Shown here one piece after another: positions 1 to 34,207 of a DNA stretch of 64,000 nucleotides. The DNA is from a virus. Taxonomy: Duplodnaviria > Heunggongvirae > Uroviricota > Caudoviricetes. The position numbers were made by a program, and so were the translations under genes. The notes beneath the pieces are model-generated. The model was given only the letters and a program-made list of their open reading frames with translations, did no database searches and was not told where the DNA came from. Numbering within the stretch: the stretch's first letter is position 1; each line of letters opens with the position of its first letter. The DNA is taken from positions 1-64,000 of the IMG/VR virus record IMGVR_UViG_3300012346_000380; one strand, written 5' to 3'.

Positions 1-548
1 TCTCCAACATTCCAAGCATTGACCATTAATCGTCTTGAGTCTGGATTTGTTTTAAGGTCGTTGATTAGGTTTTGAATTTGGTCAGTTCCTCTACCATTCC
101 AATTTCTCCACTGAGCACCATAAATTGGACCTAACTCACCCCACTTTTTAGCGAACTCATCGTCAGTTTTGATTTTGTTGATGAATTCTTCTTGTGTTAA
201 TGTTGATAATTTAATTGATGTAGGTCCAACGCCATCATATTCTGAAGTTTCAATACTATTCGAATATCTCTTATAAGCATCTCCATTCCAAATATGACAA
301 TTATTATCAACCAAATATTTAATGTTGGTATCACCGCGTAAGAACCAAAGTAACTCGATTACGATTGTTTTTAATGGCATCTTTTTAGTTGTCAATAATG
401 GAAACCCATCCTTCATATTATGCCGAATTTGTCTTCCAAAAACTGAAATTGTACCAGTACCTGTTCGGTCCTCTTTCTTTACTCCATTATCTAAAATGTC
501 TTGTAATAAATCAGTGTATTGTTTGTCTAATTTATTTATAGTTCCCAT
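1..548 (-). CDS. thyA: thymidylate synthase (ThyA family), partial: the 3' end lies beyond the window start. A dUMP-hydroxymethylase-type ThyA homolog cannot be excluded.
   Basis: Minus-strand translation from the ATG at 546-548 gives [80 protein letters not shown]. These are the canonical ThyA motifs (DRTGTGT, LLWFLRG, GPxYGxQWR, SRR). It is absent from the ORF track because it is open to the window edge. Confidence 0.85.
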
Positions 549-637
549 ATACTTTTCTTTTTGCGTTTAAATCTTTTCACTGTTAAATCCAATATTAGCC
601 AAATTACTTGTGCTATTTTCTTCATCCTCTAATTTAT

Positions 638-889
638 TTAAGACATTAAATCAGGTTCATTATCCCAATTAGTATCAATACTTGGTTTTGATTCAATTCC
701 AGTATCTTCAATCCATGTATAAATATCTGTTTCTAAAGGATTAGATTTTCCAGGAATGTAGTCTGGATTATTGACTGTTTTCCATTTCATTCCGCATCTC
801 TTGCAGTAACATTTTGTCGGCATCCATCCGAAATTATAAGAGTAATTATGACCCTTAATCTTGCAAATAATTTCCTTTATTTTTGTCAT
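638..889 (-). CDS. hypothetical small Cys-rich protein (CxC..CxxC, possible zinc ribbon)
   Basis: ORF track. It shares strand and packing with its neighbours and contains a CYCKRCG motif. Confidence 0.45.
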   Translation of the reverse strand: MTKIKEIICKIKGHNYSYNFGWMPTKCYCKRCGMKWKTVNNPDYIPGKSNPLETDIYTWIEDTGIESKPSIDTNWDNEPDLMS

Positions 890-1283
890 CTATTTCTTGT
901 ATTTTTCCGGCAATTTCTTGTATTGTATTATTTAACCTTTCTTTTTTCTTACGATATTCTGCACGAATCCATTCTTCTCTACCATCTTCTAATAAAGCTT
1001 TGTTAACTAATTTGTCAATTTTATTGAAGATTTCAGCGTGAATGATTTCAGGTCCTTTATGCGAAGGTGTAAAAAATATCTTTTTGATATTAAGTCCTTC
1101 GAAAGTTAAAAAAAGTTCAATTGATCTTGTGTAGATGTTTAAAATTTCTACTTGGACATCTACATAGACAAAAGGTCCAAGCTTGATGATGTATGGGCGG
1201 CTTCCATCTGGATTCTTTGGTTGATCGACTGTAATGCGATACGTGTCTCTTAATTCTTCTGCTATAAATTCTGCGTATGTCAT
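855..1283 (-). CDS. hypothetical protein
   Basis: ORF track, minus-strand series. No recognisable motif. Confidence 0.45.
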   Translation of the reverse strand: MTYAEFIAEELRDTYRITVDQPKNPDGSRPYIIKLGPFVYVDVQVEILNIYTRSIELFLTFEGLNIKKIFFTPSHKGPEIIHAEIFNKIDKLVNKALLEDGREEWIRAEYRKKKERLNNTIQEIAGKIQEIDDKNKGNYLQD

Positions 1284-1340
1284 GATAGTTGCTATTTAAT
1301 AAGTTATATTAAAGAAAATAAAAAAGTATCATGGCTAGAA

Positions 1341-1370
1341 AATAAAAAAGCCAATCTAATGATTGGCTTG
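1341..1370 (-). terminator. intrinsic terminator hairpin (AAGCCAATC-taat-GATTGGCTT) followed by a T-run on the minus strand
   Basis: A perfect 9-bp inverted repeat at about 1348-1369 with an A-run on the plus side (a T-run in minus sense). It lies just downstream of the tRNA cluster. Confidence 0.5.
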
Positions 1371-1378
1371 TGTTTTAA

Positions 1379-1452
1379 TGGTAGCTCCAGAGAGAATCGA
1401 ACTCCCAAGTCATCTTTAGAAGAGATGCATTATATCCGTTTAATTATGGAGC
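1379..1452 (-). tRNA. tRNA-Arg (anticodon TCT)
   Basis: Minus-strand sequence GCTCCATAATTAAACGGATATAATGCATCTCTTCTAAAGATGACTTGGGAGTTCGATTCTCTCTGGAGCTACCA. It has acceptor, T-arm GGGAG/TTCGATT/CTCTC, anticodon stem CATCT/AGATG with loop CTTCTAA, and an encoded CCA. Coordinates are accurate to about 2 nt. Confidence 0.8.
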
Positions 1453-1462
1453 CATACTGTTT

Positions 1463-1537
1463 TGAGCCTCTTGTCGGGCTCGAACCAACGACCTGATCAT
1501 TACAAATGATCTGCTCTACCAACTGAGCTAAAGAGGC
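1463..1537 (-). tRNA. tRNA-Thr (anticodon TGT)
   Basis: Minus-strand sequence GCCTCTTTAGCTCAGTTGGTAGAGCAGATCATTTGTAATGATCAGGTCGTTGGTTCGAGCCCGACAAGAGGCTCA. It has acceptor GCCTCTT/AAGAGGC, a D-arm, anticodon stem GATCA/TGATC with loop TTTGTAA, and T-arm GGTTCGAGCC. Confidence 0.8.
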
Positions 1538-1548
1538 ATTTAAATAGT

Positions 1549-1632
1549 ACCCAGGGCCGGACTCGAACCGGCACGGGACCTTCGTCCCAAAGGATTTTAA
1601 GTCCTTCGTGGCTACCATTACACCACCTGGGC
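1549..1632 (-). tRNA. tRNA-Leu (anticodon TAA), type II with a long variable arm
   Basis: Minus-strand sequence GCCCAGGTGGTGTAATGGTAGCCACGAAGGACTTAAAATCCTTTGGGACGAAGGTCCCGTGCCGGTTCGAGTCCGGCCCTGGGTA. The anticodon stem is AAGGA/TCCTT with loop CTTAAAA. The variable arm is long and the T-arm is GCCGG/TTCGAGT/CCGGC. Confidence 0.75.
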
Positions 1633-1709
1633 AACATTGTGTTAAAGAACGTTTGTTATGTATATATTACTCTAAATATACTAATTGTTTCAAGATATGC
1701 TGAAATAAT

Positions 1710-1994
1710 TTAATATTTACCAGCATTTTCTTTTACCATGACAAAAAACTTTAAAGCTTTAATACAAGTTGAATCTGCTCTAGAAATAGCTTGATCTAAT
1801 TTGTTATCGATAACTGATTGAACAAAACTACCACCTTGCAAAAGATTATCTCTTGTCATAATAATTGAGGCTGCAATGTCAACGATGTGACGTCTTTCAC
1901 CTTCAGTTACCGGCTGAGCTAAACACCATTCTAAATTTTCACTTGCGTATTTTTCAGCTGCTTGTTTTGCTTTTTGAATTAATTCTACTGACAT
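1710..1994 (-). CDS. hypothetical protein
   Basis: ORF track. Preceded by conserved promoter-like element P1. Confidence 0.5.
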   Translation of the reverse strand: MSVELIQKAKQAAEKYASENLEWCLAQPVTEGERRHIVDIAASIIMTRDNLLQGGSFVQSVIDNKLDQAISRADSTCIKALKFFVMVKENAGKY

Positions 1995-2076
1995 ATTTGT
2001 TTGTTTTTAATTATAAGGCTAATATACTGCTTTTATTTGACATAAAAAAATTATTTAGCATTTATTTTTAAAATAT
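1995..2076 (-). promoter_or_regulatory. conserved intergenic promoter/leader element copy P1 (GGCTAATATAC ... TTTGACATAAAAAAATTATTTAG ... TTATTTTT on the plus strand)
   Basis: It belongs to a family of at least 12 near-identical elements that sit immediately upstream (in minus sense) of gene starts. In gene orientation it reads ..TTTTTTTATGTCAAA..GTATATTAGCC..AATTAAAAACAAAC-ATG, which resembles a Bacteroidetes TAnnTTTG -7 box plus an A-rich leader. Confidence 0.5.
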
Positions 2077-2532
2077 TTACATATAAGAAGTAGAAAGACT
2101 CTTGAGATGATTTAAGAGTGCTTTATCTTCAATCCTATGAATTATTTTCATACCTTCTTGTTGTCTTTTAAGCGCAGTTATAGTATTGCCTGTGTGAAAT
2201 GTAATATTATGTAATTGTGCAACTTTAGGATCCATTTCGAAAATACATCCAGCAAATTGGTCTTCTTTTGTTTGCAAAGGCACTGAAATCCAATAAACTC
2301 TATGTGAATTCATAATCTTATTATATTGACCATTTGGTATTGAAAATGAATCATAATAAATTAGAGGTGCATTTGTTTTTACTTCAACATTATTTCCGTC
2401 AATGATCATGTCCTTTTCAGAATCAAAAATATTTAAGGATTCATCTACAACACATCCTGCATCTCTAAAATGTTTTGCTACAATCTTTTCGCCTAACATT
2501 CCTAATAGAACTTTTTTATAATCTACTTCCAT
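2077..2532 (-). CDS. hypothetical protein with a possible PD-(D/E)xK nuclease-like motif (IIDGNNVEVKT)
   Basis: ORF track. The D..EVK arrangement following a hydrophobic strand is suggestive only. Confidence 0.4.
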   Translation of the reverse strand: MEVDYKKVLLGMLGEKIVAKHFRDAGCVVDESLNIFDSEKDMIIDGNNVEVKTNAPLIYYDSFSIPNGQYNKIMNSHRVYWISVPLQTKEDQFAGCIFEMDPKVAQLHNITFHTGNTITALKRQQEGMKIIHRIEDKALLNHLKSLSTSYM

Positions 2533-2535
2533 TTT

Positions 2536-3948
2536 TTACATTGCATTTACAGCTGCAATAATCTGATCTATTTTGGTTAATAAAGATGCTTTAGAACTTC
2601 CAGCTTTTTCATTGATAAATCCTCTAGCTGTGTTAAGATCTTCTAAAGAAAATGTTTTATCACTACCATAAACTCTGGCTGCTAATGGATTTGTATTAAT
2701 CTTATTATTAACAAAAGTTAACATAAAATCTAAACATTTATCATAATTACCAGTGTTTGGATCAACTAATCTTGCGGCTGTACGAATATCATCATATAAA
2801 GCTTGTACATTGTTTGGTCTGTTAACTAAAGACTTCATAATCACAGCTTGTGTTAAGTATTGAAATCTTTTGCTTAAAAGAGCTTCAGCAATATATTTGG
2901 TTTCAAAGTTAGCAGTTCGGCCATAATTACCAATCCAACCTAAATACAACCACGTTGAGCGTACTTCATCTCTTTCTTCTAATTGTTGACTTACGCTACC
3001 GTTATCTAAACTTCTACGAGCAATATCACCCGCAAACCAAATTGGATCTAAAACCGACTCATAAGTATCGTCTGATAATTTACCATCTACATAGATATTA
3101 AATGGACCAAATTTACCACCTTTATATCTTATAACATGTTGAATATAAGCGCTTGACATCCATTTCATTGTGTTATAAGACTCTTTAAAGTCTGAGTAAC
3201 CATGCTCACCTGGGTGCTTTTGGCCTTCTGTCAAACTATTAAAGACTACTCTTTTAAATCTAACGTAATTTTCATCAGTTGGACTGTCAAGATAATTCAT
3301 ATATGCAGACTTGACTTGTAAATTACCATTTCTCAAAAGTTCCATTGGTTTATCTGGCATAATATCATTAATAGAAGCGGTATCAATCCAAGATGGCAAA
3401 GTAATTGGCACCTTAATTTGTGTAAAGTCCCAGTTATTAACTTGACTTACGCTATATGAAGCATTACTTAAGCCAACTGAGTTTGCAAATTGACCTTCAC
3501 TTACTATTTCACCTCCAGGTTGATACACGTTCTTGATTGAATTTCTAGGTGTAACTTTTCCTTTTGTTAAACTCTTAATGTAATTCATCACATTAATTGC
3601 ATCTTGTGTAGAAACGTGCTTTATTGCTCTGTGAAACGTACGATTCATAAAAGGAATTGAATCTATGTTGTTAAACAATGCAATGTCATAACCATCTTTA
3701 GAAACGTGACAGCTCATGCAAGAATGGCCGTCTTTGTCTAAAGTTGAAGTGTAGACTGTCTGTCCTTTAAGGATCGATTCGCTCATAGAACCAGAATTTA
3801 CAATTCTAGAATCCAACTGTGTTTCTGTGTTTAATTCTCCTGGGGCAACAGCAGTCACTGTAGTTTTTGGTGTAATTTCTTCAAGTTCATCTTTTGTACA
3901 AGATTGAAATAAAACTACAGCGACTAATAATAATGATAACTTTTTCAT
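2536..3948 (-). CDS. exported lipoprotein with a single CxxCH heme-c binding motif (putative c-type cytochrome domain protein)
   Basis: The start is taken at the internal ATG (MKKLSLLLVAVVLFQSC). The track ORF begins at a TTG and reads through the upstream promoter element. Signal peptide with a lipobox (FQSC). GHSCMSCHV supplies the only other cysteines in the protein. Confidence 0.6.
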   Translation of the reverse strand: MKKLSLLLVAVVLFQSCTKDELEEITPKTTVTAVAPGELNTETQLDSRIVNSGSMSESILKGQTVYTSTLDKDGHSCMSCHVSKDGYDIALFNNIDSIPFMNRTFHRAIKHVSTQDAINVMNYIKSLTKGKVTPRNSIKNVYQPGGEIVSEGQFANSVGLSNASYSVSQVNNWDFTQIKVPITLPSWIDTASINDIMPDKPMELLRNGNLQVKSAYMNYLDSPTDENYVRFKRVVFNSLTEGQKHPGEHGYSDFKESYNTMKWMSSAYIQHVIRYKGGKFGPFNIYVDGKLSDDTYESVLDPIWFAGDIARRSLDNGSVSQQLEERDEVRSTWLYLGWIGNYGRTANFETKYIAEALLSKRFQYLTQAVIMKSLVNRPNNVQALYDDIRTAARLVDPNTGNYDKCLDFMLTFVNNKINTNPLAARVYGSDKTFSLEDLNTARGFINEKAGSSKASLLTKIDQIIAAVNAM

Positions 3949-4014
3949 GTTCTTTGCTTTTTTGTTATATGTAAATATACCACAAATCTTTGACATAAAA
4001 AAATATTTAAGCAA
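3949..4014 (-). promoter_or_regulatory. conserved promoter/leader element copy P2 (TGTAAATATAC .. TTTGACATAAAAAAATATTTAAG)
   Basis: Same repeat family as P1. It lies directly upstream of the lipoprotein gene. Confidence 0.5.
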
Positions 4015-5091
4015 TTATTTTTCGTTTAAAAGAAATTTATTTGAAATAGCTTTAAAACTAATCTGTCTGTCCATGGTTCTAAACACTACACCTTCTCTAT
4101 CGAAGTTTGGGTTAAGCACTGACTTTGCTTCTGCAAAGGCTAAACAATCATCGATGGTTTCTGGCAATTTCATCGTTAGATTAGTTAAAATTGGCACAGT
4201 CTCTAACTTAAATTGATGTTTAAATAAAGCCAAGAACATAGGTAAACCATAATAATATTGATTGTCAATATCAAATGCGTTAAAGAATTTAACTGTATGT
4301 CCTTTGATTCCATAAGGATTGCCTTGAATTCCTTCACCGATCAATTCACCTTGTAAAGCCATGTTGTGATTATCATTCTCTCTCAATTTCTCTTCAATCT
4401 TCAATTCACGAGCTACTTTCCAAAATGTATTTTCTTCAGTTTCAAGTAAATCTAAATTTCTAGAGCAAACTCCAAATACGCCGTCATTTAAATAAAAAGT
4501 AGCTGAACTACCATCTAATTTCTCAGTCACGTAAAAGTCTAAATCTTCTTCAAACCATTTTTTATAAAAGCCTGTTAAATTTTGAACTCTCTCTTCATCA
4601 GTTTTTCTTAAGAATGATGGAAAGCTACCTTTAACTTTACCAGCTAATTCGGCTGGAATTGGTGGTTCATATTTAACTACGTTTAAATATTCTGTCACAT
4701 CTGCACCTTCTTCAATTACTAAAGCATTATCATAAGGTCCAACTTGTAATCTGTCTTCGCTCATTCCTATCTTATACTCATCGGGCCCTTCTAAAATACT
4801 CAAAGGCACTACAAGTCCTTGAGAAACTTGGCCTCTAAGTCTAATCGTTTTTAAACGAAAACCTTCTTGATCTGCCATTTTCTTAAAAGAGCTCTTGCGT
4901 AAAAACTCAAACTCTTCTCTAATCGGTAGAAATGAGTCAATTTCAAAATAAACGCAAAGATCTCCTGGCTTATATTCTCCTTTTTTAGAAACTACATCCC
5001 AGTTATTAATTCTTACAACTTCAATTGCATCAGCGCCTTCAATTGGTCTAATGCTTGCTACTCTTTGAATTGAGGCTAATTTTCTTTCCAT
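4015..5091 (-). CDS. ATP-dependent RNA ligase, Rnl5/DraRnl-like (N-terminal extra domain, nucleotidyltransferase KxDG motif at about residue 190)
   Basis: VTEKLDGSS is the lysine-adenylyltransferase motif I. It is preceded by an approximately 180-aa N-terminal domain (IEGADAIEVVRINNWD..GDLCVYFEIDSFLP), as in Rnl5/NgrRnl-type ligases. A DNA-ligase assignment is possible but less likely. Confidence 0.55.
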   Translation of the reverse strand: MERKLASIQRVASIRPIEGADAIEVVRINNWDVVSKKGEYKPGDLCVYFEIDSFLPIREEFEFLRKSSFKKMADQEGFRLKTIRLRGQVSQGLVVPLSILEGPDEYKIGMSEDRLQVGPYDNALVIEEGADVTEYLNVVKYEPPIPAELAGKVKGSFPSFLRKTDEERVQNLTGFYKKWFEEDLDFYVTEKLDGSSATFYLNDGVFGVCSRNLDLLETEENTFWKVARELKIEEKLRENDNHNMALQGELIGEGIQGNPYGIKGHTVKFFNAFDIDNQYYYGLPMFLALFKHQFKLETVPILTNLTMKLPETIDDCLAFAEAKSVLNPNFDREGVVFRTMDRQISFKAISNKFLLNEK

Positions 5092-5378
5092 GGTTTTTTA
5101 TATTTAAGTTCCCAAAATTTTCTATACTCTCGTACGTTAATCATTTTAATAGTGTAGTTCCAATAATCTGTTTCGTTTCTTATTGTTAAATGCAAAACTA
5201 ACATCGAAGGTGGAACATGGTTTGTTGTAGCCCATTTAAAAAGAGCTTTGGTATTTCCTTTTTGTCTAATTTTTTTAGCAAATGTTTTAAAATCACAATC
5301 CCATACTTCAGGATAATAATGTAAAACTCCAGAACTACCGTGTCCAATATAACCAATATTATATGCTACTTGATCCAT
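5076..5378 (-). CDS. hypothetical protein
   Basis: ORF track. It overlaps the downstream ligase gene by 16 nt. Confidence 0.4.
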   Translation of the reverse strand: MDQVAYNIGYIGHGSSGVLHYYPEVWDCDFKTFAKKIRQKGNTKALFKWATTNHVPPSMLVLHLTIRNETDYWNYTIKMINVREYRKFWELKYKKPWKEN

Positions 5379-5389
5379 TTTTTATAGTA

Positions 5390-6499
5390 TTATGAGTTTG
5401 AAAATGGTTTTTCAAACTCTGGTTTAATCATTTTCCAAATTGCATCTCTAATACTTTTATTGTTCTTAATAGAAAATAAAAGACCTGAATTTTTATAAAA
5501 TTTAGCTTCATTGGCAAACATTTTATCAAATTCAGTTTGATAAATTGCAACTCTATCAAAAATCTCATTGAATTTTCGATATGCATCTGCTTCTATTTTC
5601 GAGTAAGCCTCTCTCAAGGTTGTCTCTTGTGCTCTGACCCAATCATAGAACTCATCTGGCACGTCCTTTAGCAATTCTTCTGGTATCTTATTGAATTTCA
5701 TTAAGTTCTCCCAGATGTCATAAGAAGAGCATTGAGTTAGTATTCTGTGTAAAGCACAATAGTCTTCAAACTTAATTTTGACTCTCTTATTAGAAGGAAA
5801 GAATCTTAAAACGAAACCTTCTTTGTTTTGCTCATTCTTTTTCTTTAACGTCTTATATAGATCTTCATTTAAATTAAAGACTTGATTAGTTTCTACAATG
5901 TCATATTTTTCAATACCTGCACATTTAAAGAAAACACACGCCGTAGTCCAATTTAATTCATCAGTGTTTTCACCATCCCAATTCCATGAAGTATTGTAAG
6001 CTGCTCCTAAAAAGACTACCTTTTCAAAATCATACTTAACAACAATTCTATTTTCATTGTAAATGATCTCACACAAATAAGCAATAGCTGGTTCAAATGA
6101 TCTTAAATCATTATATCTAGCTTTGACCATTTCAAGACCTTTGATAGCTTGTACAGATGTAAAAGAGCCTCTAGTGGCCATGATCCATTCACCTTTATAA
6201 TTAAATAAGATACCTAATGAACCATCCATTTTCTCTTGCACATAGACATAATCAGAAGAAGTCCAAGGAATATCCTCAGCTACTTCTTCATAATTAAAAA
6301 ATTTAGGAAATGATTTAATAATAACCTCGCCAGTTGAATCATCGACGATTAAACCTCTACAAGCCAAAGTAATTTCATCCCATTTCTTTTCATATTGGGT
6401 AGCTTGTGAGTAATTGTATATGCTTAATGGTAAAGTTGGGTGACTTTGTTTAATCACCCAACCTTCTTCTACGTACTTGTCTAATATTTTCTTATTCAT
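5390..6499 (-). CDS. RNA ligase 1 family (T4 RnlA-like)
   Basis: At 369 aa with motif I VQEKMDGSLGILF near residue 100, it matches the T4 Rnl1 architecture (K99 in a KEDG-type motif). NYSQ..ITLACRGLIV lies upstream of that motif. Confidence 0.55.
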   Translation of the reverse strand: MNKKILDKYVEEGWVIKQSHPTLPLSIYNYSQATQYEKKWDEITLACRGLIVDDSTGEVIIKSFPKFFNYEEVAEDIPWTSSDYVYVQEKMDGSLGILFNYKGEWIMATRGSFTSVQAIKGLEMVKARYNDLRSFEPAIAYLCEIIYNENRIVVKYDFEKVVFLGAAYNTSWNWDGENTDELNWTTACVFFKCAGIEKYDIVETNQVFNLNEDLYKTLKKKNEQNKEGFVLRFFPSNKRVKIKFEDYCALHRILTQCSSYDIWENLMKFNKIPEELLKDVPDEFYDWVRAQETTLREAYSKIEADAYRKFNEIFDRVAIYQTEFDKMFANEAKFYKNSGLLFSIKNNKSIRDAIWKMIKPEFEKPFSNS

Positions 6500-6569
6500 C
6501 TTCTTTAATTATATGTAAATATACCAAAAATAAATGAGATAAAAAAATATCTAAGCACTTATTTTTAAA
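6500..6569 (-). promoter_or_regulatory. conserved promoter/leader element copy P3
   Basis: The sequence TTAATTATATGTAAATATACC..ATGAGATAAAAAAATATCTAAGCACTTATTTTTAAAT is a repeat-family member upstream of the Rnl1-like gene. Confidence 0.45.
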
Positions 6570-6956
6570 TTATAATTGTATTTCAAATCTGTCTTCCATT
6601 TGTTTTAGCTTTTCAGCTGGAACACCATGTTGATTAACTCCGTTATGTCTGTTTTCAACTATCAAAGAGTACACGATATAACCATATTTTTTAGCTAATG
6701 TGTAATATGTTTCCATTTCCCACTCTTGTGTAAATGTATTTGATATAACAATACGAGCTTCTCCGTTTTCCATATCTTCTTTACAAGATGATTGGCAATA
6801 TTTGTGTGCTTGTAAAAGTTTTACAGCTTCAAACTTATATTCACCTTTTCTATTTGTAAAGAAATGATCTGCTTCGTGATGTGTTCCACCTAAAGATTTA
6901 GCGACGGTTGATTTGCCAGAACCTGGTAAACCTCTTAATAAAAATAATTCTTTCAT
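6570..6956 (-). CDS. polynucleotide 5'-kinase-like P-loop kinase (T4 Pnk kinase-domain-like)
   Basis: Walker A RGLPGSGKSTVAK near the N-terminus. Small size (128 aa). It sits between an RNA ligase and a phosphoesterase. Confidence 0.55.
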   Translation of the reverse strand: MKELFLLRGLPGSGKSTVAKSLGGTHHEADHFFTNRKGEYKFEAVKLLQAHKYCQSSCKEDMENGEARIVISNTFTQEWEMETYYTLAKKYGYIVYSLIVENRHNGVNQHGVPAEKLKQMEDRFEIQL

Positions 6957-6966
6957 ATTTGATTGA

Positions 6967-7632
6967 TTAACAAGTCATTGCATCATTGTGATGATCATGC
7001 TCGTGTTTTAATAAAGATTGTATTGGTCTATCTACAATTAGTTTCAAAACTTGATCAATAGTGTAAGGTTGAAAATCAGGGCTTCCATCAATTCCAACAT
7101 CCATCATTCTACCAGGCCCAACTTTAAATTGATGTGGTGTGTGAATATGACCATGGACGTGCATTACGCCTTGACCCATATCTTGCCAAGAAGCCAAAGG
7201 ATAATGACTCATGACGAATCTGTATTTTTTGGCTGCTTCACCTTTGGTAGTTGGTTGTATTACAATTGTCACCATTCTTTGCTCATTTACTGAGGCAAAA
7301 AGATCTTGAACATTATCTTTATTGTTAAGAATATGATGATCATGGTTTCCTAAGAATAAATGAATGTTCTTACAGTTTAATTTATTTCTGAATTCTACAA
7401 TAGAATCAAAGCCTCCAAAAGACCAGTCACCTAAGTGAATTAAAATATCGTCTTTCATAACTAACATGTTAATGTTGTCTTGTAAGTCAATATTCATTTG
7501 ATTTAATGATTCATAATCTCTAGTGCCTCGGGCTCCATCCCATTTAGAAACTCCTCTACAAATATTTGTATGGTTGTAATGCGTATCTGAAGTAAAAAAG
7601 ACTCTTTGTCCTGGGTTAACTACTATCTTCAT
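6967..7632 (-). CDS. calcineurin-like metallophosphoesterase (candidate 2',3'-cyclic/3'-phosphoesterase of the RNA-repair cassette)
   Basis: All MPP motifs are present: SDTHYNH (DxH), HLGDWSFGG (GD), FLGNHDHH (GNHD/E), and a GHxH region (HVHGHIH). Confidence 0.75.
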   Translation of the reverse strand: MKIVVNPGQRVFFTSDTHYNHTNICRGVSKWDGARGTRDYESLNQMNIDLQDNINMLVMKDDILIHLGDWSFGGFDSIVEFRNKLNCKNIHLFLGNHDHHILNNKDNVQDLFASVNEQRMVTIVIQPTTKGEAAKKYRFVMSHYPLASWQDMGQGVMHVHGHIHTPHQFKVGPGRMMDVGIDGSPDFQPYTIDQVLKLIVDRPIQSLLKHEHDHHNDAMTC

Positions 7633-7720
7633 AGTTTATTTGTTTTTAATTATAAGGCTAATATACAACAAATAATTGACATAAAAAAATATTTAAGTCT
7701 TTATTTTTAAAATATTTTAG
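7633..7720 (-). promoter_or_regulatory. conserved promoter/leader element copy P4
   Basis: The sequence TTTTAATTATAAGGCTAATATACAAC..ATTGACATAAAAAAATATTTAAGTCTTTATTTTTAAAATATT lies directly upstream of the phosphoesterase gene. Confidence 0.5.
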
Positions 7721-7801
7721 CAGTCAAGGCAGGATTCGAACCTGCAACGATACAACCATTAAGGATGACATAACCATTTTGCCATTACGTATTACTTGAC
7801 T
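7721..7801 (-). ncRNA. tRNA-like RNA module 1: perfect T-arm and a 7-bp acceptor-like stem, but no convincing anticodon arm
   Basis: Minus-sense sequence AGTCAAGTAATACGTAATGGCAAAATGGTTATGTCATCCTTAATGGTTGTATCGTTGCAGGTTCGAATCCTGCCTTGACTG. Acceptor AGTCAAG/CTTGACT and T-arm GCAGG-TTCGAAT-CCTGC are clear. The best anticodon candidate (loop GTCATCC, anticodon CAT) has only a 4-bp stem. This may be an odd tRNA, a pseudo-tRNA, or a Y-RNA-type tRNA mimic. Confidence 0.35.
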
Positions 7802-7860
7802 TCCTTTCTAATGAGAGCATCACACACTCAAGACTGTTCATAAACTAGTTTAAGTAGAGT

Positions 7861-8015
7861 AGTCAGGACAGGATTCGAACCTGTATTGTAATTATACTCC
7901 TCTTTGTGTTAGCAGTCAGAGTTTCGCCTACAGTCATTGGGTGCTAACCTTTCGGACCCAACCGCGTCTACCATGAAAGGACCTTTAATATTCCTAACTA
8001 TTCCGCCACCTGACT
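7861..8015 (-). ncRNA. tRNA-like RNA module 2: the T-arm plus acceptor 3' strand are at 7861-7884, and the matching AGTCAGG 5' strand is about 150 nt upstream at 8009-8015
   Basis: The minus-sense 3' end is ACAGGTTCGAATCCTGTCCTGACT-ACTCTAC. The complementary AGTCAGG lies at 8009-8015. The intervening RNA contains GCGGTTGGGTCCGAAAGGTTAGCA, which resembles the Y-RNA 5' GGUCCGA motif. The fold is unresolved by eye. Confidence 0.3.
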
Positions 8016-8672
8016 TCAATTTACTAATCTGGGTCTTTCATGTAGCTTACCGAGTTATCAGTTACGGAGCTTGTACATGAGCAGGGTTTCTGATTGAGTG
8101 CAATAAGTGACGCCTTCCTACTGTAAACCCTTTTTCGGAAATTAATACACTCTACCTCTCAATTAACAGCAAGCATTAGTAAATTGTTTAGCACCCTCTT
8201 TCTTATATGACTATTTCTTACAGTTTACGCCCATATAAGAGTAGGGTCACGTAGTTTTCAATTTGGCAGTTCCTCTCTGCACCCATTTGTTAAGTTTAAT
8301 TATTGCTACTTGCTGAGAACTCATTTGTGTTGATAAGAACGTTGTCTTACTCTTTTATAGCATCACTTTCTCAAGGTGACAACACATCTACCATTACTGA
8401 TAGTATCTTTATGTAAATTATACTTAATATTTATAGACGATAAGTTAAACGTCGGCAATAATTTACAAAGGTATTCAATGTTTAACCTATTAACAATTAT
8501 CGACTACAAGGTTAATTGTTTTGTGTGAGCTTTTAGCACACTACCTGCCAGTTTATACATAGGAACCGAAACCTTAAACCTAGTCTGACCTGCCAGACAG
8601 TACAAGTCGATATTAATTTCACGTGTCGTTTTGTAGTAGGTTCTTTTGTTATATCTTAAACCTTTAAAAAGT

Positions 8673-9254
8673 TTAAAGTATTGTGTCTTTATATCCTTGT
8701 TTCCAATCTAACCACGGTTCATCGATTGCTTTTAATAATGACAGATATTTCCAATGCATAAACAATTTACGCTCGTTCCAATCTTCATATTTTTTAATTA
8801 AAAGATCTTGCTTATCCATTTCAGTTTTATAGAAATCTGCTCTTTTTGAAAGTTTAGTAAAGCGATCATCTAATTTTGCAAGTCTTTTTACAGCATTTTC
8901 AGTTGAGAGTCCTTGCATTGATAATGAAACTATCAATTCTTTTAGATTAACAATCATGTCAATCATAGAATTCAATTTCGGTACTAATGAATTGTAAGAA
9001 GTTTTTGCAGATTCCTTTGATCTTTTAAAACTATTATAATTCTCTTGCAATTCTTTGTCAGCTAGATCTTCATGAATTAATGTAGTAACATCAATGCCAT
9101 ACATTTGATCGAACTGTTCTCCGGCTGGAATCGGTGCTAACATAGCCATTCCTGCAATTTCTTCGTTTTTAGTTTCATTTAAAACTGCAACGTAACAATT
9201 ACCTTTTTGAGTTTCTAAAAGCTCTTTAACTTGTTTTTGTGTGTATAATTTCAT
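8673..9254 (-). CDS. hypothetical protein
   Basis: ORF track. No motif recognised. Confidence 0.5.
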   Translation of the reverse strand: MKLYTQKQVKELLETQKGNCYVAVLNETKNEEIAGMAMLAPIPAGEQFDQMYGIDVTTLIHEDLADKELQENYNSFKRSKESAKTSYNSLVPKLNSMIDMIVNLKELIVSLSMQGLSTENAVKRLAKLDDRFTKLSKRADFYKTEMDKQDLLIKKYEDWNERKLFMHWKYLSLLKAIDEPWLDWKQGYKDTIL

Positions 9255-9258
9255 AATT

Positions 9259-9570
9259 TTATTTATAATGTGTTTCGTACCAAGTTAATGTATCTCCTAC
9301 ATTAAATTCCATGAACTCTTTTAATTCAACTTCTTGTAATTCTCCGGATTCAAATAGTATATAGTAATTAGTTCTAAATTCTCCAAATCTATTAATAGAC
9401 TCCTGTTCAGATTGTTTTGCAACTACTACGCCTTGGACTTCAATTGTTTCAGAATTTTCTATTTTTTTTTCATCAAAATAATTATATGTAAAACAAATTA
9501 AAATAGTACCGATAATTGCAGCAATAAAAATGCTTAGTATTTCCCGTTCGATAGTATTTAATTTTTTCAT
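9259..9570 (-). CDS. hypothetical membrane-anchored protein (N-terminal TM helix)
   Basis: ORF track. The hydrophobic segment LSIFIAAIIGTILICF indicates a TM helix. Confidence 0.5.
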   Translation of the reverse strand: MKKLNTIEREILSIFIAAIIGTILICFTYNYFDEKKIENSETIEVQGVVVAKQSEQESINRFGEFRTNYYILFESGELQEVELKEFMEFNVGDTLTWYETHYK

Positions 9571-9571
9571 T

Positions 9572-9829
9572 TTATTTTGAGTAATTTCTGTCTAATAAAT
9601 CATTCCAGGTTAGAGTTCCTATCAATGATGGAATATGCATCGATTCTGTAAAGAATTCCCAATCTCCATCAAAATTTGTGAATTGTATTTGATAACATTC
9701 CAATGTTTCATTGACTGTAATCATACATTTTTCATTGGCCCATTTATTTTCACTTACGTTTTTAAATCCATTTCTTTCTAATAAAGAACCTACGATTTGT
9801 GAACTTTTTAATCTTTGATTACTATTCAT
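9572..9829 (-). CDS. hypothetical protein (start moved to the internal ATG MNSNQRL)
   Basis: The track ORF 9572..9901 would overlap a small TM ORF in another frame. The internal ATG at 9827-9829 overlaps that ORF's stop (ATGAATAG). Confidence 0.4.
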   Translation of the reverse strand: MNSNQRLKSSQIVGSLLERNGFKNVSENKWANEKCMITVNETLECYQIQFTNFDGDWEFFTESMHIPSLIGTLTWNDLLDRNYSK

Positions 9830-9977
9830 AATATTGAGGTTGATTAATTTCGTATATGTCTGCTCTTGTGATTGGTGTATTATTATAAATTCCTTCAGCA
9901 ACTAAAAAACCAAAAGCAAATGCCGCTAATAACAATATCAATATAACTTGATTTGTTTCTTTATCTTTTGTGATCAT
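9822..9977 (-). CDS. small hydrophobic protein, 51 aa (MITKDKETNQVILILLLAAFAFGFLVAEGIYNN..)
   Basis: It is not in the ORF track because it is under 60 aa. The ATG overlaps the stop of the upstream gene (ATGA) and its stop overlaps the next start. It contains one predicted TM helix. Confidence 0.35.
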   Translation of the reverse strand: MITKDKETNQVILILLLAAFAFGFLVAEGIYNNTPITRADIYEINQPQYYE

Positions 9978-10174
9978 TTTTGTAATTTACCGTCAAGAAA
10001 TAATAATGATTCTCCAGCTTCAAATCCTGCAACTTCAATATTACAGTATTCGTTGTTGTAGTCTAATAGATCACAATCTAAAATGCAATACTCGATCTCG
10101 GCTGCATCTAAAAATTGTACAAATTGTTCAGCATCTAGTGTCGCTGCTTTTTCTAAAATTGATTTCGGTGTCAT
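9974..10174 (-). CDS. hypothetical acidic protein
   Basis: ORF track. Confidence 0.45.
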   Translation of the reverse strand: MTPKSILEKAATLDAEQFVQFLDAAEIEYCILDCDLLDYNNEYCNIEVAGFEAGESLLFLDGKLQK

Positions 10175-10184
10175 AATTTTTTGT

Positions 10185-10799
10185 TTAATAATGATTAAGA
10201 ATATCTAATGAGTCTGGATAATATAACAATGTTGGATTTTTCTTTTGAATATCAATGTCTGGATATTTTTCACTGAATGTTTTAACATCAAATCTTTCAG
10301 TAATTAAATGAAATCCATTTTTAGTTGGTATAGTTGTTATAACTTTGTTACCAACTGGTCTAAGATTATCAATGAAATCGCCAACTTCAACTAAAGTTTT
10401 AAAATCTTTAGTATCAATGTCTACAATCCATCTTTTCTCTTGAGTTTTTATTTGTCCAACAACAGAATCAAATAAACCTTTTTGATTATGATTTCCATCT
10501 TGGATCTTTTGAGCTAGAGCAACCATCATATTTAAACTAACATCAAAATGATTTTGCTTTTGCACATGAATATAAGCTCGAGCCTTAAACATCTCACAAA
10601 GTTGAATGATTTCGTCCCAACGTCTCTCTAAATGATCAACGCTTTCAATACAATATGTTTTAATAGTTCTTACTGATTGGTGATTATCTCTTTCGTTTTC
10701 TGGTTGATCTTTTTTACGTTTAAAAACATAAAGCATATAAAAGTCACCTCTCTTTTCGAAGTTCAAGAGTCCTTTGATTTGTTCTAAATTATTTAGCAT
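10185..10799 (-). CDS. hypothetical protein
   Basis: ORF track. Confidence 0.5.
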   Translation of the reverse strand: MLNNLEQIKGLLNFEKRGDFYMLYVFKRKKDQPENERDNHQSVRTIKTYCIESVDHLERRWDEIIQLCEMFKARAYIHVQKQNHFDVSLNMMVALAQKIQDGNHNQKGLFDSVVGQIKTQEKRWIVDIDTKDFKTLVEVGDFIDNLRPVGNKVITTIPTKNGFHLITERFDVKTFSEKYPDIDIQKKNPTLLYYPDSLDILNHY

Positions 10800-10801
10800 A
10801 C

Positions 10802-11017
10802 TTATAATTCTTTAACTGTTAAACGCTTTGCATCTACAACCGTACTTAATTTTTCAAATGCGATACTTGTTGAAGAGTCAGATGCTCTAAAACATAAATA
10901 ATGTTCTCCATCTAATACAATTCCATATTTACAAGATGCTAATTCTGTGATTGCAACATTTGCTTTTACTAAAATTGAATCTATCATTCCGCTAATTTGT
11001 TTTTCTAACTCAGTCAT
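10802..11017 (-). CDS. hypothetical small protein (start at the internal ATG MTELEKQ)
   Basis: The N-terminal 26 residues of the track ORF (..FFVYIYRVIKTIK) are a translation of the conserved promoter element and the terminator region. 'cat' at 11015-11017. Confidence 0.45.
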   Translation of the reverse strand: MTELEKQISGMIDSILVKANVAITELASCKYGIVLDGEHYLCFRASDSSTSIAFEKLSTVVDAKRLTVKEL

Positions 11018-11110
11018 ATTCTTTATTGTTTTAATTACTCTGTAAATATAAACAAAAAAGCCCAAATAAAAAAATATTTGAGCTTTTATTTTCATAAAGT
11101 TACGAACAAT
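11018..11110 (-). promoter_or_regulatory. terminator-promoter cassette copy P5 (hairpin AAGCCCAAAT/ATTTGAGCTT at about 11054-11085, then TGTAAATATA promoter-like box)
   Basis: Near-identical cassettes occur at 18011-18100 and 21492-21589. The hairpin plus T-run in minus sense lies downstream of gene 11111..11377. Confidence 0.5.
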
Positions 11111-11377
11111 TTATTTGTAGTCCTGTAAAAGTCCTCTAATATCTTGTATTTCTTTATAGGTAACTGTTTCGTCTTTTGCTATATTAAAATCTTGCCATTT
11201 GTATGAGATAATATTGTTTTGCACAATAGGCTTCATGTGATGTTGTCGCTTTTTGCAACATGAACATTCACGCATTGGAATTCTAATAGTTTCTCTATTC
11301 GCTGGATGGCCTGTGATTTTAACTTTTTCTTTACTGTATTTCCAAAAATGAAAATTTAAAACGCAAAAGAGTTTCAT
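11111..11377 (-). CDS. hypothetical Cys-rich small protein
   Basis: ORF track. Contains a CSCCKKRQHH motif. Confidence 0.45.
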   Translation of the reverse strand: MKLFCVLNFHFWKYSKEKVKITGHPANRETIRIPMRECSCCKKRQHHMKPIVQNNIISYKWQDFNIAKDETVTYKEIQDIRGLLQDYK

Positions 11378-11391
11378 GATGTTATATTGTT

Positions 11392-11556
11392 TTATTCGTT
11401 GTTTAGATCTTTTTGCCAGGATTTATCCTTTCTATTGTACTTAGCTAAATCTCCGTGATCCTTTGACATCATTTTACGACGAATTATAGCAGCAACGTGT
11501 CTGTCAGTTAATCCGTTTAAAGTTTCGTTAGGTTTTGCTTTCTTTTTATTAGCCAT
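11392..11556 (-). CDS. small basic protein, 54 aa (MANKKKAKPNETLNGLTDRHVAAIIRRKMMSKDHGDLAKYNRKDKSWQKDLNNE)
   Basis: Not in the track (under 60 aa). It is the only ORF filling the 240-nt gap. Its lysine/arginine-rich composition suggests nucleic-acid binding. Confidence 0.3.
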   Translation of the reverse strand: MANKKKAKPNETLNGLTDRHVAAIIRRKMMSKDHGDLAKYNRKDKSWQKDLNNE

Positions 11557-18010: not shown

Positions 18011-18100
18011 CTTGTTTGTTTTAATTACTTTGTAAATATACAAAAAAAAGCCCAAACTAAAAAATTTGGGCTTAACTATTTTCAAAAAATTATAGGCTTA
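18011..18100 (-). promoter_or_regulatory. terminator-promoter cassette copy P7 (hairpin AAGCCCAAA/TTTGGGCTT at about 18042-18073 plus TGTAAATATAC box)
   Basis: A perfect 9-bp stem with an 8-nt A-run on the plus side (T-run in minus sense). It is identical in design to the 21492-21589 copy. Confidence 0.55.
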
Positions 18101-19874: not shown

Positions 19875-20180
19875 TTAGTTTAAAATGTCAGCTTCTGGTT
19901 TTATTTCAACCTCAACTTCCCATTTAGGATTTCTTTGTGTCACTAATTTTATAATACCGTATGCTAGGTGATTATAGTTTGCACTTGTTAATGTGAATGT
20001 TGCTTCAGTAACAAGCTTACGATTGTCATACGCAACTTCAACTCCACTTAATTTAGCAATTAAATTACCTTTATGGTAAATATTTCCGCTTTCGTATGTT
20101 AATCCATCAGAAGACACGTGTCTTAATTCTGAACAACTTGCCATTGATACTAACGCAAGCAACATAATTAATTTTTTCAT
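19875..20180 (-). CDS. small secreted lipoprotein
   Basis: Signal peptide MKKLIMLLALVSMASC with a lipobox cysteine. Confidence 0.5.
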   Translation of the reverse strand: MKKLIMLLALVSMASCSELRHVSSDGLTYESGNIYHKGNLIAKLSGVEVAYDNRKLVTEATFTLTSANYNHLAYGIIKLVTQRNPKWEVEVEIKPEADILN

Positions 20181-21491: not shown

Positions 21492-21589
21492 AATGGATGT
21501 TTGTTTTAATTTGTATATGTAAATATACGAAAAAAAGCCCAAACTAAAAAATTTGGGCTTAATTATTTTCGTAAAGTTACGAACAATTT
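21492..21589 (-). promoter_or_regulatory. terminator-promoter cassette copy P8 (hairpin AAGCCCAAA/TTTGGGCTT at about 21529-21560 plus TGTAAATATAC box)
   Basis: It has the same stem and loop as the 18042-18073 copy. The flanking AAAGTTACGAACAATTT is shared with the 11018-11110 copy. Confidence 0.55.
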
Positions 21590-24233: not shown

Positions 24234-24294
24234 AATTTGTTTGTTTTTAATTACTCTGTAAATATACAACAAACATTTGACATAAAAAAATATT
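24234..24294 (-). promoter_or_regulatory. conserved promoter/leader element copy P10
   Basis: The sequence is TTTTTAATTACTCTGTAAATATACAACAAACATTTGACATAAAAAAATATTTTAG. Confidence 0.5.
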
Positions 24295-25738: not shown

Positions 25739-25817
25739 TATTGACTCAGGACCTCAAGAGCATGGGCACCACTCTTATTAAAAAGAAAAGGAACCATTGC
25801 TGATTCCTTTTCTGTAG

Positions 25818-25899
25818 CGGAGAGGACAGGATTCGAACCTGCAACCCGTTTCCGAGCGACGGTTTTCAAGACCGCTCGACAACCATTGTCCACCTCTCC
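25818..25899 (-). tRNA. tRNA-Ser (anticodon TGA), type II
   Basis: Minus-strand sequence GGAGAGGTGGACAATGGTTGTCGAGCGGTCTTGAAAACCGTCGCTCGGAAACGGGTTGCAGGTTCGAATCCTGTCCTCTCCG. Acceptor GGAGAGG/CCTCTCC. Anticodon stem GCGGT/ACCGT with loop CTTGAAA. Long variable arm and T-arm GCAGG/TTCGAAT/CCTGT. Confidence 0.75.
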
Positions 25900-34152: not shown

Positions 34153-34207
34153 TTTCTCAAGCTCAGATGGTTGTATATGTAAATGTAAATATACGTAAAA
34201 CTTTGTC
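34153..34207 (-). promoter_or_regulatory. promoter-like element copy P11 (TTGTATATGTAAATGTAAATATACGTAAAAC)
   Basis: Variant of the TGTAAATATAC box family. Confidence 0.4.

Follow-up and report, generated by a model that had tools for sequence, protein, structure and literature searches.

A phage lipoprotein predicted to join a single-haem cytochrome c-like domain to a family-specific helical domain

What use would a phage have for a lipoprotein that carries a haem attachment motif? The question is raised by a gene at positions 2536-3948 of a 64,000-nucleotide stretch of viral DNA (IMG/VR record IMGVR_UViG_3300012346_000380, positions 1 to 64,000; Caudoviricetes), referred to here in its full length as the window. 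An original prediction described the gene product as an exported lipoprotein with a lone CxxCH motif. It proposed that the protein might be an auxiliary redox protein, a haem sensor or scavenger, or a peroxidase-like enzyme.

As judged from sequence comparison and structure modelling, the protein is very probably a mono-haem cytochrome c that is exported, held by a lipid anchor and joined to a novel second domain. The explanation that combines the evidence, and that is favoured here with some reserve, is an envelope lipoprotein cytochrome that performs electron transfer as an auxiliary function of the phage.

The gene and its haem attachment motif

Reading frame and translation place the start codon, ATG, at 3948 and the stop codon at 2536-2538 on the minus strand. 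A program-made list of open reading frames (ORFs) gives a longer frame of 492 residues, beginning with a TTG at 4014. The ATG at 3948 is taken as the start because most homologues begin there, giving an N-terminus MKKLSLLLVAVVLFQSC that forms a lipoprotein-type signal with a cysteine at residue 17. The original view of the gene product as an exported lipoprotein with a lipobox cysteine is borne out by the ORF, the signal and Cys17, all of which can be read from the sequence.

The 470-residue protein contains four cysteines, at residues 17, 77, 80 and 405. The lipobox cysteine and those of the motif CMSCH had been thought to be the only ones; they are indeed present, and Cys405 has to be added to them. 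This fourth cysteine is unconserved and is replaced by Ser in many homologues.

The motif itself is encoded by the minus-strand codons TGC ATG AGC TGT CAC at 3706-3720. CMSCH is judged to be beyond chance, because shuffled versions of the phage protein rarely yield a CxxCH (frequency 3.2e-4 in 200,000 shuffles) and because the family retains the motif. It is also the sole CxxCH among open frames of at least 80 residues in the window.

Conservation of CxxCH in homologues had been named as a check on the haem-c assignment, and the motif is kept: it is invariant in the 18 of 18 close homologues that cover the region, and it occurs in 176 of 178 family proteins of at least 400 residues, exactly once in 173 of them. 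The exceptions are P0024, which has the C-terminal domain only, and P0108, which looks spurious. In an alignment of 65 members, G62, C77, C80, H81, D88, F92, W187, G307 and W333 are invariant; C17, R107, H111, W263 and W304 are 98% conserved, and H271 is conserved in 91%. The behaviour of CxxCH as a genuine haem-c attachment site is thus supported at the sequence level by its retention across a family whose members may share as little as about 20% identity.

A class I cytochrome c-like domain

The motif lies in a stretch of approximately 95 residues, 53-146, for which a class I cytochrome c-like domain is supported by profile matches and by a structure model, in keeping with the haem-c role first proposed for CMSCH. 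Searches with cytochrome and peroxidase profiles, also suggested as a check, gave weak cytochrome matches at the level of the family, with none above threshold for the phage protein and none to PF03150, the family of di-haem peroxidases. Ten of 32 family members scanned against Pfam match PF13442 weakly (best expectation value, E, 1.5e-4); matches to PF00034 and to the c-550 model come from single members. Several long homologues also match PF13442 weakly, below the 27-bit cut-off where bit scores are shown. The NCBIfam matches are weak only, and are to cytochrome c551, c6, PsbV (one member, 3.5e-5) and QcrC.

When the family profiles are compared with PDB sequences, the significant matches are solely to c-type cytochromes. 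These include a CcoP-cy fusion (5e-8, summed over three domains) and actinobacterial QcrC (1e-5), with weaker matches to mitochondrial cytochrome c, c6, c4 and PsbV. The significant part of the alignments consists of the N-terminal helix and CxxCH ("aaGkaaFeaeCasCHa"). Below threshold, HMMER also aligns the family helix "sataldIvaYIksL", in co-linear order, with the C-terminal helix of the CcoP and QcrC domains ("EAQIRAVASYVHSL", "DEKRDIVAYVRES"). It is by its N- and C-terminal helices that a class I cytochrome c fold is recognised.

A model built from a deep alignment (32 sequences, including distant members) has a predicted local distance difference test score (pLDDT) of 88.3 and a predicted template modelling score of 0.85. 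Its N-terminal domain has helices at residues 55-68, 77-80, 87-91, 98-109 and 114-128. In blocks of 10 residues, pLDDT is mostly 83-93 over residues 53-146, with 64-78 in three blocks, and mostly 78-93 over the helices 55-68 and 114-128. The linker before the domain is poorly conserved and variable in length, with a pLDDT below 50 for residues 18-52. Longer homologues have fn3, Big_2 or InlB-repeat spacer domains in its place.

His111 lies in the loop just before the C-terminal helix 114-128, where class I cytochromes carry their Met ligand. Because a conserved histidine occupies this loop, ligation of the haem iron by His81 and His111 (His/His) is predicted, as in PsbV.

A simpler view of the motif would be that Cys77 and Cys80 form a disulfide or a metal site, and that the histidine is incidental. 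Such a view could appeal to the fact that no cytochrome model scores above its curated threshold for the phage protein and that the haem is a prediction from sequence and model. It is nevertheless very unlikely. The histidine after the second cysteine is 100% conserved together with both cysteines, even among the most divergent members of the family. Both the N-helix motif (G-x-x-x-F/Y) and the C-terminal helix motif are of the class I cytochrome type, and the protein is predicted to lie outside the cytoplasm, where haem attachment occurs.

A peroxidase or other detoxifier of reactive oxygen, or a haem sensor or scavenger, would also be expected outside the cytoplasm. By eye, "G-x-x-V-Y...L-D...S-C-x-S-C-H" resembles the first haem motif of di-haem peroxidases, and there are weak PDB matches (E 0.004-0.26) over the motif only. 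The lack of any PF03150 match holds even at E 10 or better, however; there is one haem site rather than two, the conserved distal histidine would block the sixth coordination position, and no fold similarity to any peroxidase was found in whole-chain searches. Scavenging is unlikely because covalently bound haem cannot be handed on. This whole group of functions, which the original prediction had entertained, is highly improbable.

A helical partner domain

Behind the cytochrome-like domain lies a domain of approximately 320 residues that, by sequence and model, is new and specific to this family. In the deep-alignment model, residues 147-470 have a pLDDT mostly above 90 and form about a dozen helices and one hairpin. 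The domain has no Pfam or NCBIfam match in any of the 32 members scanned and no relative in the PDB, and a Foldseek search with the modelled protein returned no match at E 1e-3 or better. Its invariant or near-invariant residues, W187, Y219, W263, H271, W304, G307 and W333, are mostly Trp, Tyr and His.

The motif PGEHG (residues 246-250) is conserved in the Bacteroidota and phage branch as P-G-E-(H)-G. Where it lies, the homologues from Gemmatimonadota have two invariant cysteines (alignment A3, around P0032 residues 232-243), which probably form a disulfide. By alignment, the exchange of PGEHG for a cysteine pair is a lineage-specific change in the helical domain.

One metagenome protein, P0024 (426 residues), is a lipoprotein that has the C-terminal helical domain only and lacks CxxCH. 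The cytochrome and helical domains are therefore separable modules.

Lipoprotein signal and predicted surface export

The signal, read by eye and by pattern, consists of a positively charged n-region, a hydrophobic core and the lipobox cysteine. The lipobox reads L-F-Q-S/C17. Residue -1 is S, A or G throughout the family; Gln at -2 is unusual yet recurs in the phage clade. The lipobox cysteine is conserved in 98% of the 65 aligned members, and lipobox-like contexts are found across the family.

The mature N-terminus, C17-T-K-D-E-L, is an exact instance of the pattern C-X-K-(D/E)2-X. This pattern was shown in Capnocytophaga to be optimal and sufficient for export of lipoproteins to the cell surface (Lauber et al. 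2016, PMC5080379), and related export signals work across Bacteroidetes (PMC5080379). Both phage clades described below, A and B, keep C-[TSE]-K-[DE]-[DE]. In longer relatives, spacer repeats of the fn3, Big_2 and InlB types stand between anchor and cytochrome, as in extended surface proteins. Display on the cell surface is predicted because the mature N-terminus matches the export signal exactly, and the odds that the prediction is right are about even.

Attachment of the haem would require a synthase. Bacteroides has the system II synthase CcsBA (PMC13645880). A WWD haem-handling motif was not found in the window by regular expression, a crude test; the phage therefore seems not to bring its own cytochrome synthase, and haem attachment would depend on the machinery of the host.

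Cyanophage plastocyanin or ferredoxin genes support photosynthesis during infection. The present protein might boost respiration in a comparable way, as a periplasmic shuttle between alternative complex III and the cbb3 or caa3 oxidases that sustains energy during infection. The best profile matches are to respiratory cytochromes of the CcoP and QcrC types, the protein is membrane-tethered, some cellular homologues are without the acidic part of the export signal, and c-type cytochrome auxiliary genes such as soxD exist in phages (PMC8190135). Those matches, however, cover generic class I motifs only, and a shuttle would have no need of the conserved extra domain of 320 residues. With His/His ligation, as predicted here, the potential is usually too low for an oxidase to be supplied with electrons, the phage copies bear the full surface-export signal, and respiratory genes never adjoin the gene in the loci examined. 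A respiratory role is accordingly doubtful, with perhaps one chance in eight or so.

Relatives in cells and phages

A metagenome protein collection yielded 19 close homologues, 32-100% identical to the phage protein, and an exhaustive profile search raised the family to 127 cluster representatives. Most members have 420-480 residues and share one layout, in which a signal peptide and lipobox cysteine are followed by a single CxxCH 25-60 residues later.

The phage protein has no significant match in Pfam, PHROGs or NCBIfam, and none in Pfam at E 10 or better; a non-haem or structural family, either of which would have spoken against the haem assignment, did not emerge. Matches to an arginyltransferase (E 0.005), SoxA (E 0.13) and a PHROG RNA polymerase (E 0.41) were rejected as noise. 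No homologue was detected by tblastn in 50,697 GenBank phage records, and PADLOC gave no match for the phage protein or four relatives. A word-indexed search for cellular names yielded little beyond the phage clade, and no name that was informative.

Relatives in phages form two clades. Clade A, which includes the present protein, occurs on contigs that look like phage and are 100-250 kb long. Its members are present on five viral contigs of IMG/VR; a sixth has an unplaced relative that is 42% identical. Clade B consists of proteins of 465 residues, approximately 32% identical to the present one, on other phage-like contigs and one IMG/VR contig. It is very frequent in the public metagenome collection, where it was found in 122 index blocks.

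Among the other genes of clade-A contigs are those for DnaJ, HSP20, ribosomal protein S21, PhoH, RNase HII, UvdE and dCMP deaminase. In contigs L001 (247 kb) and L003 (148 kb), 1-11413, the genes for DnaJ, HSP20, S21, PhoH, RNase HII and UvdE lie upstream of the homologue. The homologue is followed there by a conserved ORF of 77-78 residues and a GATase/BPL_N-like gene, both of which are absent at the corresponding position of the window.

Relatives in cells come from two phyla. Those of Bacteroidota have 458-477 residues and lie in ordinary chromosomal neighbourhoods, where several adjoin genes with a sorting domain of the type IX secretion system (T9SS), a Bacteroidota marker. A high-GC branch belongs to Gemmatimonadota and was found at 34 genome loci, in a genome scan that used a narrower alignment and recovered this phylum only.

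In a neighbour-joining tree, which is rough and without support values, the low-GC sequences stand apart from Gemmatimonadota, clade B is nested among cellular Bacteroidota, and clade A forms a deeper sister branch. This pattern fits at least one capture of the gene from hosts.

Two cellular neighbourhoods deserve mention for their layout. In one lineage of Bacteroidota (L055-L058), the homologue lies 74 bp downstream of a same-strand gene for a GH16 glycoside hydrolase that has a T9SS sorting domain; for this lineage alone, a connection with polysaccharide processing is hinted at. In a high-GC cellular locus (L007, 6408-9481), P0032 is preceded by a Big_2 protein and followed by an ORF of 75 residues and a GMC-type oxidoreductase. 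The latter arrangement was seen once and is reminiscent of flavoprotein-cytochrome dehydrogenases. Neither layout is used as evidence here.

Selection, upstream cassette and gene surroundings

Ratios of nonsynonymous to synonymous substitution rates (dN/dS) between pairs of phage copies are 0.03-0.19, with values for distant pairs being rough since dS is saturated. This comparison shows purifying selection on the phage copies.

The 66 bp that precede the gene form part of a recurrent cassette. Eight perfect matches to its box TATATTTAC occur in the window; every one is on the coding strand, and the majority lie 15-35 nt upstream of an ATG. The box is preceded by TTG or TTTG and, in most copies, by an AT-rich block "GAAAATAA...AAATATTTTTTTAT"; three copies directly follow a terminator made up of a hairpin and a T-run (AAGCCCAAA...TTTGGGCTTTTTT). 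A 13-mer of the cassette has 6 matches, compared with 0.98 expected. The cassette resembles the Bacteroidota -7 box TAnnTTTG and is likely to mark a single temporal class among the transcripts of the phage; an exact TAnnTTTG, the Bacteroidota promoter consensus, was not found upstream of the clade-A genes.

Six other clade-A contigs (L001, L003, L010, L011, L013 and L014) have this cassette in front of the homologue too; there the next gene upstream encodes UvdE, compared with an RNA ligase in the window. Since the cassette is kept despite the different upstream gene, gene and promoter travel together.

These observations would also suit a protein for superinfection exclusion or receptor masking. 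In that case a surface lipoprotein would block a receptor or alter the envelope, and the haem would be a structural leftover or stabiliser. The phage lipoproteins T5 Llp and Cor act in this way. Like them, the present protein is a phage-encoded lipoprotein, with an exact surface-export signal; its gene sits among non-structural genes with a promoter of its own, shifts its genomic position, as a cassette, from one related phage to another, and is carried by two separate phage lineages. Exclusion does not explain, however, why CxxCH, His111 and the cytochrome signature are as strict in phages as in cells, which points to a working haem. The cellular homologues are moreover widespread and stand-alone, with no link to phages or outer-membrane transporters, and there is the negative PADLOC result. 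Exclusion is therefore regarded as improbable, at roughly one chance in seven.

Within the window, the gene sits between an RNA-repair module and an ORF of 151 residues. It lies approximately 30 kb from the genes for sheath, terminase, head and portal. The phage protein has neither a significant PHROG match nor a position in a structural module, and a lipoprotein signal is not expected on a virion protein. From the position of the gene, expression together with non-structural genes is inferred.

The RNA-repair module spans 4015-7632 on the minus strand and adjoins the tRNA cluster, which suggests a counter-defence against host tRNA nucleases. The 151-residue ORF (2077-2532, minus strand) starts 3 nt after the cytochrome stop codon, has no Pfam match and is probably co-transcribed with the cytochrome gene. 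By eye, a "D...EVK" pattern in it looks like a PD-(D/E)xK nuclease; in other phages this ORF and the cytochrome gene are not linked. Another small ORF that resembles a lipoprotein (101 residues; 19875-20180, minus strand; MKKLIMLLALVSMASC/SELRH) is without the K-(D/E)2 signal and could be an o-spanin or another envelope protein.

The phage and its probable host

The window encodes a tail sheath, large terminase, T4-type major head protein, prohead protease, portal, SbcC-like nuclease and DnaB-like helicase. Together with four tRNAs, the head, tail, terminase and portal genes agree with the phage setting given in the original prediction. Nearly all genes lie on one strand, and the guanine-plus-cytosine (GC) content is 31.8%.

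The sole DNA similarity to cultured phages in the first 25 kb is at 97-539 (443 bp, 77% identical), which matches the thymidylate synthase region of the Flavobacterium phages vB_FspM_immuto. The major head protein (49934-51406, minus strand) is closest to that of an uncultured 462-kb phage, LR756500 (51%), followed by those of Prevotella Lak megaphages (38%). By these similarities the phage would belong among the large, T4-like myoviruses associated with Bacteroidota. A host from Bacteroidota is likely because of the DNA match to Flavobacterium phages and the relatives of the head protein; the GC content of the window and the cellular homologues beside T9SS genes also speak for it. The coordinates of the features in the window are collected in Table 1.

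Table 1. Positions of the gene, its parts and neighbouring features in the window
Feature	Position	Strand	Basis or remark
Complete coding sequence, 470 residues and stop	2536..3948	minus	ORF and translation
Signal peptide and lipobox, residues 1-17, MKKLSLLLVAVVLFQS/C	3898..3948	minus	Sequence reading; family conservation
Residues 18-22, TKDEL	3883..3897	minus	With Cys17, fits Bacteroidota lipoprotein export signal C-X-K-(D/E)2-X
Variable low-confidence linker, residues 23-52	3793..3882	minus	Model confidence, weak conservation
Class I cytochrome c-like domain (predicted), residues 53-146	3511..3792	minus	Deep-alignment model, profile matches
CMSCH, residues 77-81, predicted to bind haem covalently, His81 being the proximal ligand	3706..3720	minus	Sequence, conservation
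His111, candidate distal (sixth) haem ligand	3616..3618	minus	98% conservation, loop position
Family-specific all-alpha domain, residues 147-470	2539..3510	minus	Structure model, family conservation
TATATTTAC box of promoter-like cassette	3971..3979	minus	Ends 22 nt upstream of ATG
AT-rich block GAAAAATAATTGCTTAAATATTTTTTTAT of same cassette	3995..4023	minus	Overlaps 3' end of RNA ligase gene
All TATATTTAC copies	3971-3979, 6515-6523, 11042-11050, 18032-18040, 21519-21527, 24258-24266, 34185-34193, 46585-46593	minus	
PHA02142-type RNA ligase	4015-5091	minus	
T4 Rnl1-like RNA ligase	5390-6499	minus	
AAA_33 kinase	6570-6956	minus	
Metallophosphoesterase	6967-7632	minus	Weak match below Pfam cut-off
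tRNA Arg-TCT, Thr-TGT, Leu-TAA (tight cluster) and Ser-TGA	1379-1632 and 25817-25899	minus	

Proposed mechanism

The model proposed for the protein, an electron-transfer lipoprotein of the infected envelope, starts with a precursor that would be exported unfolded and lipidated at Cys17. Next, the system II synthase of the host (CcsBA in Bacteroidota) would join haem covalently to Cys77 and Cys80. His81 and His111 would ligate the iron, giving a His/His and probably low-potential haem. The protein would then be sent to the outer membrane and flipped to the cell surface by means of C-X-K-(D/E)2-X. As an electron-transfer module, its cytochrome domain may donate electrons to, or accept them from, a site or partner that the helical domain binds.

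The phage may have acquired the gene from the gene pool of its Bacteroidota hosts. A host origin is proposed because cellular homologues adjoin T9SS genes and clade B nests among them. The phage would express it from its own promoter, among non-structural genes, and so alter the redox chemistry of the infected envelope. The gene would be auxiliary and its product not part of the virion. A structural role is set aside because the gene has RNA-repair genes and tRNAs around it and lies a long way from those for head and tail.

Several points weigh against this model. The fold assignment draws on weak family-level matches and short motifs: no cytochrome model in Pfam or NCBIfam reaches its curated threshold for the phage protein, and whole-chain fold searches gave only helical-repeat noise. 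A first structure model, from close homologues only, left the N-terminal domain unfolded, so that the cytochrome domain is modelled with confidence only if the deep alignment is used. The usual Met ligand is absent, and the homologue alignment has no conserved Met in the domain. This does not exclude a class I fold, because class I cytochromes with His/His ligation exist, PsbV being one.

Other difficulties concern export. Cellular Bacteroidota relatives keep the Lys of the signal, often with weaker acidic content (C-S-K-S-D, C-Q-K-T-P), and we know of no case in which this pathway carries a folded holo-cytochrome to the surface. Both system II and the export signal presuppose that the probable host phylum, Bacteroidota, is the right one.

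The neighbourhoods of the gene are a third difficulty. No neighbour family is common to more than 3 of 23 Gemmatimonadota loci, as far as crude ORF calls and clustering can tell. No partner gene is shared among four distinct Bacteroidota neighbourhoods (eight loci, several of them near-duplicates), the one exception being a pair of unannotated flanking genes (410 and 242 residues) that agree in size and position between two closely related loci. Since there is no conserved operon, the gene appears to be a self-contained unit that always stands alone.

A bolder form of the model is possible, if unlikely at about one chance in five. On the outside of the cell that they infect, Bacteroidota phages would display a redox-active cytochrome with covalently bound haem, and the helical domain would be catalytic or substrate-binding. 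If this were true, the phage would run extracellular redox chemistry, whether by reducing iron or another acceptor, oxidising a surface polymer, or quenching oxidants. Among the cargo of the Bacteroidota lipoprotein export pathway, the protein would then be the first c-type cytochrome exposed at the surface, and it would define a new class of viral auxiliary function.

Comparison with known systems

The class I c-type cytochromes (PF13442 and PF00034; CcoP, QcrC, c6, and PsbV or c-550) share with the phage protein a single CxxCH after a helix with Gly and an aromatic residue. They also share a C-terminal amphipathic helix of the type "DIxAYIxxL", a length of approximately 95 residues, an all-alpha structure and an extracytoplasmic location. 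PsbV has the His/His ligation that is predicted here. Unlike these cytochromes, the phage protein has a conserved His in place of Met and D-G-x-D-x-A-x-F after CxxCH, and is fused to a helical domain of 320 residues and tethered by lipid.

Surface lipoproteins of Bacteroidota (SusD-like proteins, MucG and BtuG; PMC5080379) share the C-X-K-(D/E)2-X signal with the phage protein, which is large and mostly helical. Unlike those lipoproteins, the homologues have no TonB-dependent transporter as a neighbour in the four distinct cellular Bacteroidota neighbourhoods. To our knowledge, a covalent-haem motif has not been known in this class, and the phage protein carries one.

An example of a c-type cytochrome among phage auxiliary genes is soxD, found in phages of sulfur oxidisers (Kieft et al. 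2021, PMC8190135). The likeness lies in conserved cytochrome c motifs in a phage gene whose product needs the maturation machinery of the host. There is no sequence relationship, and SoxD works with the adjacent SoxC in a known pathway, whereas the present gene is stand-alone and encodes a lipoprotein.

For the proposed surface display, a precedent in topology is provided by MtrC and OmcA of Shewanella, which are lipid-anchored c-type cytochromes on the outer face of the outer membrane. They differ in being decahaem proteins of another fold that use type II secretion and a porin-cytochrome conduit, and no homology was detected.

Outer-membrane lipoproteins made by phages during infection or lysogeny include Llp of T5, Cor of phi80 and N15, and Bor of lambda. 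Unlike the phage protein, these are small (approximately 60-100 residues) and free of cofactors; there is neither homology nor a PHROG match. Finally, the di-haem cytochrome c peroxidases and MauG (PF03150) are likewise periplasmic, all-alpha and equipped with haem c, and the context of their first CxxCH is superficially similar. They have two haems and a defined fold, whereas the phage protein is without a Pfam or fold match.

Significance

Phage c-type cytochromes (soxD) and surface lipoprotein cytochromes (MtrC, OmcA) are known already. What is new is the family itself, along with the fold of the large domain, the fact that two phage lineages carry it, and the occurrence together of a covalent-haem motif and the Bacteroidota surface-export signal. 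The result is to be taken as an experimental lead rather than a solved mechanism.

This uncharacterised family spans Gemmatimonadota, Bacteroidota and at least two phage lineages. Phage genes that need both the haem-attachment and the lipoprotein-sorting machinery of the host are rare. The protein would offer a natural substrate for asking whether Bacteroidota surface export can move a folded, cofactor-loaded protein. If its predicted function is confirmed, it would mean that phages remodel the redox chemistry of the envelope in Bacteroidota.

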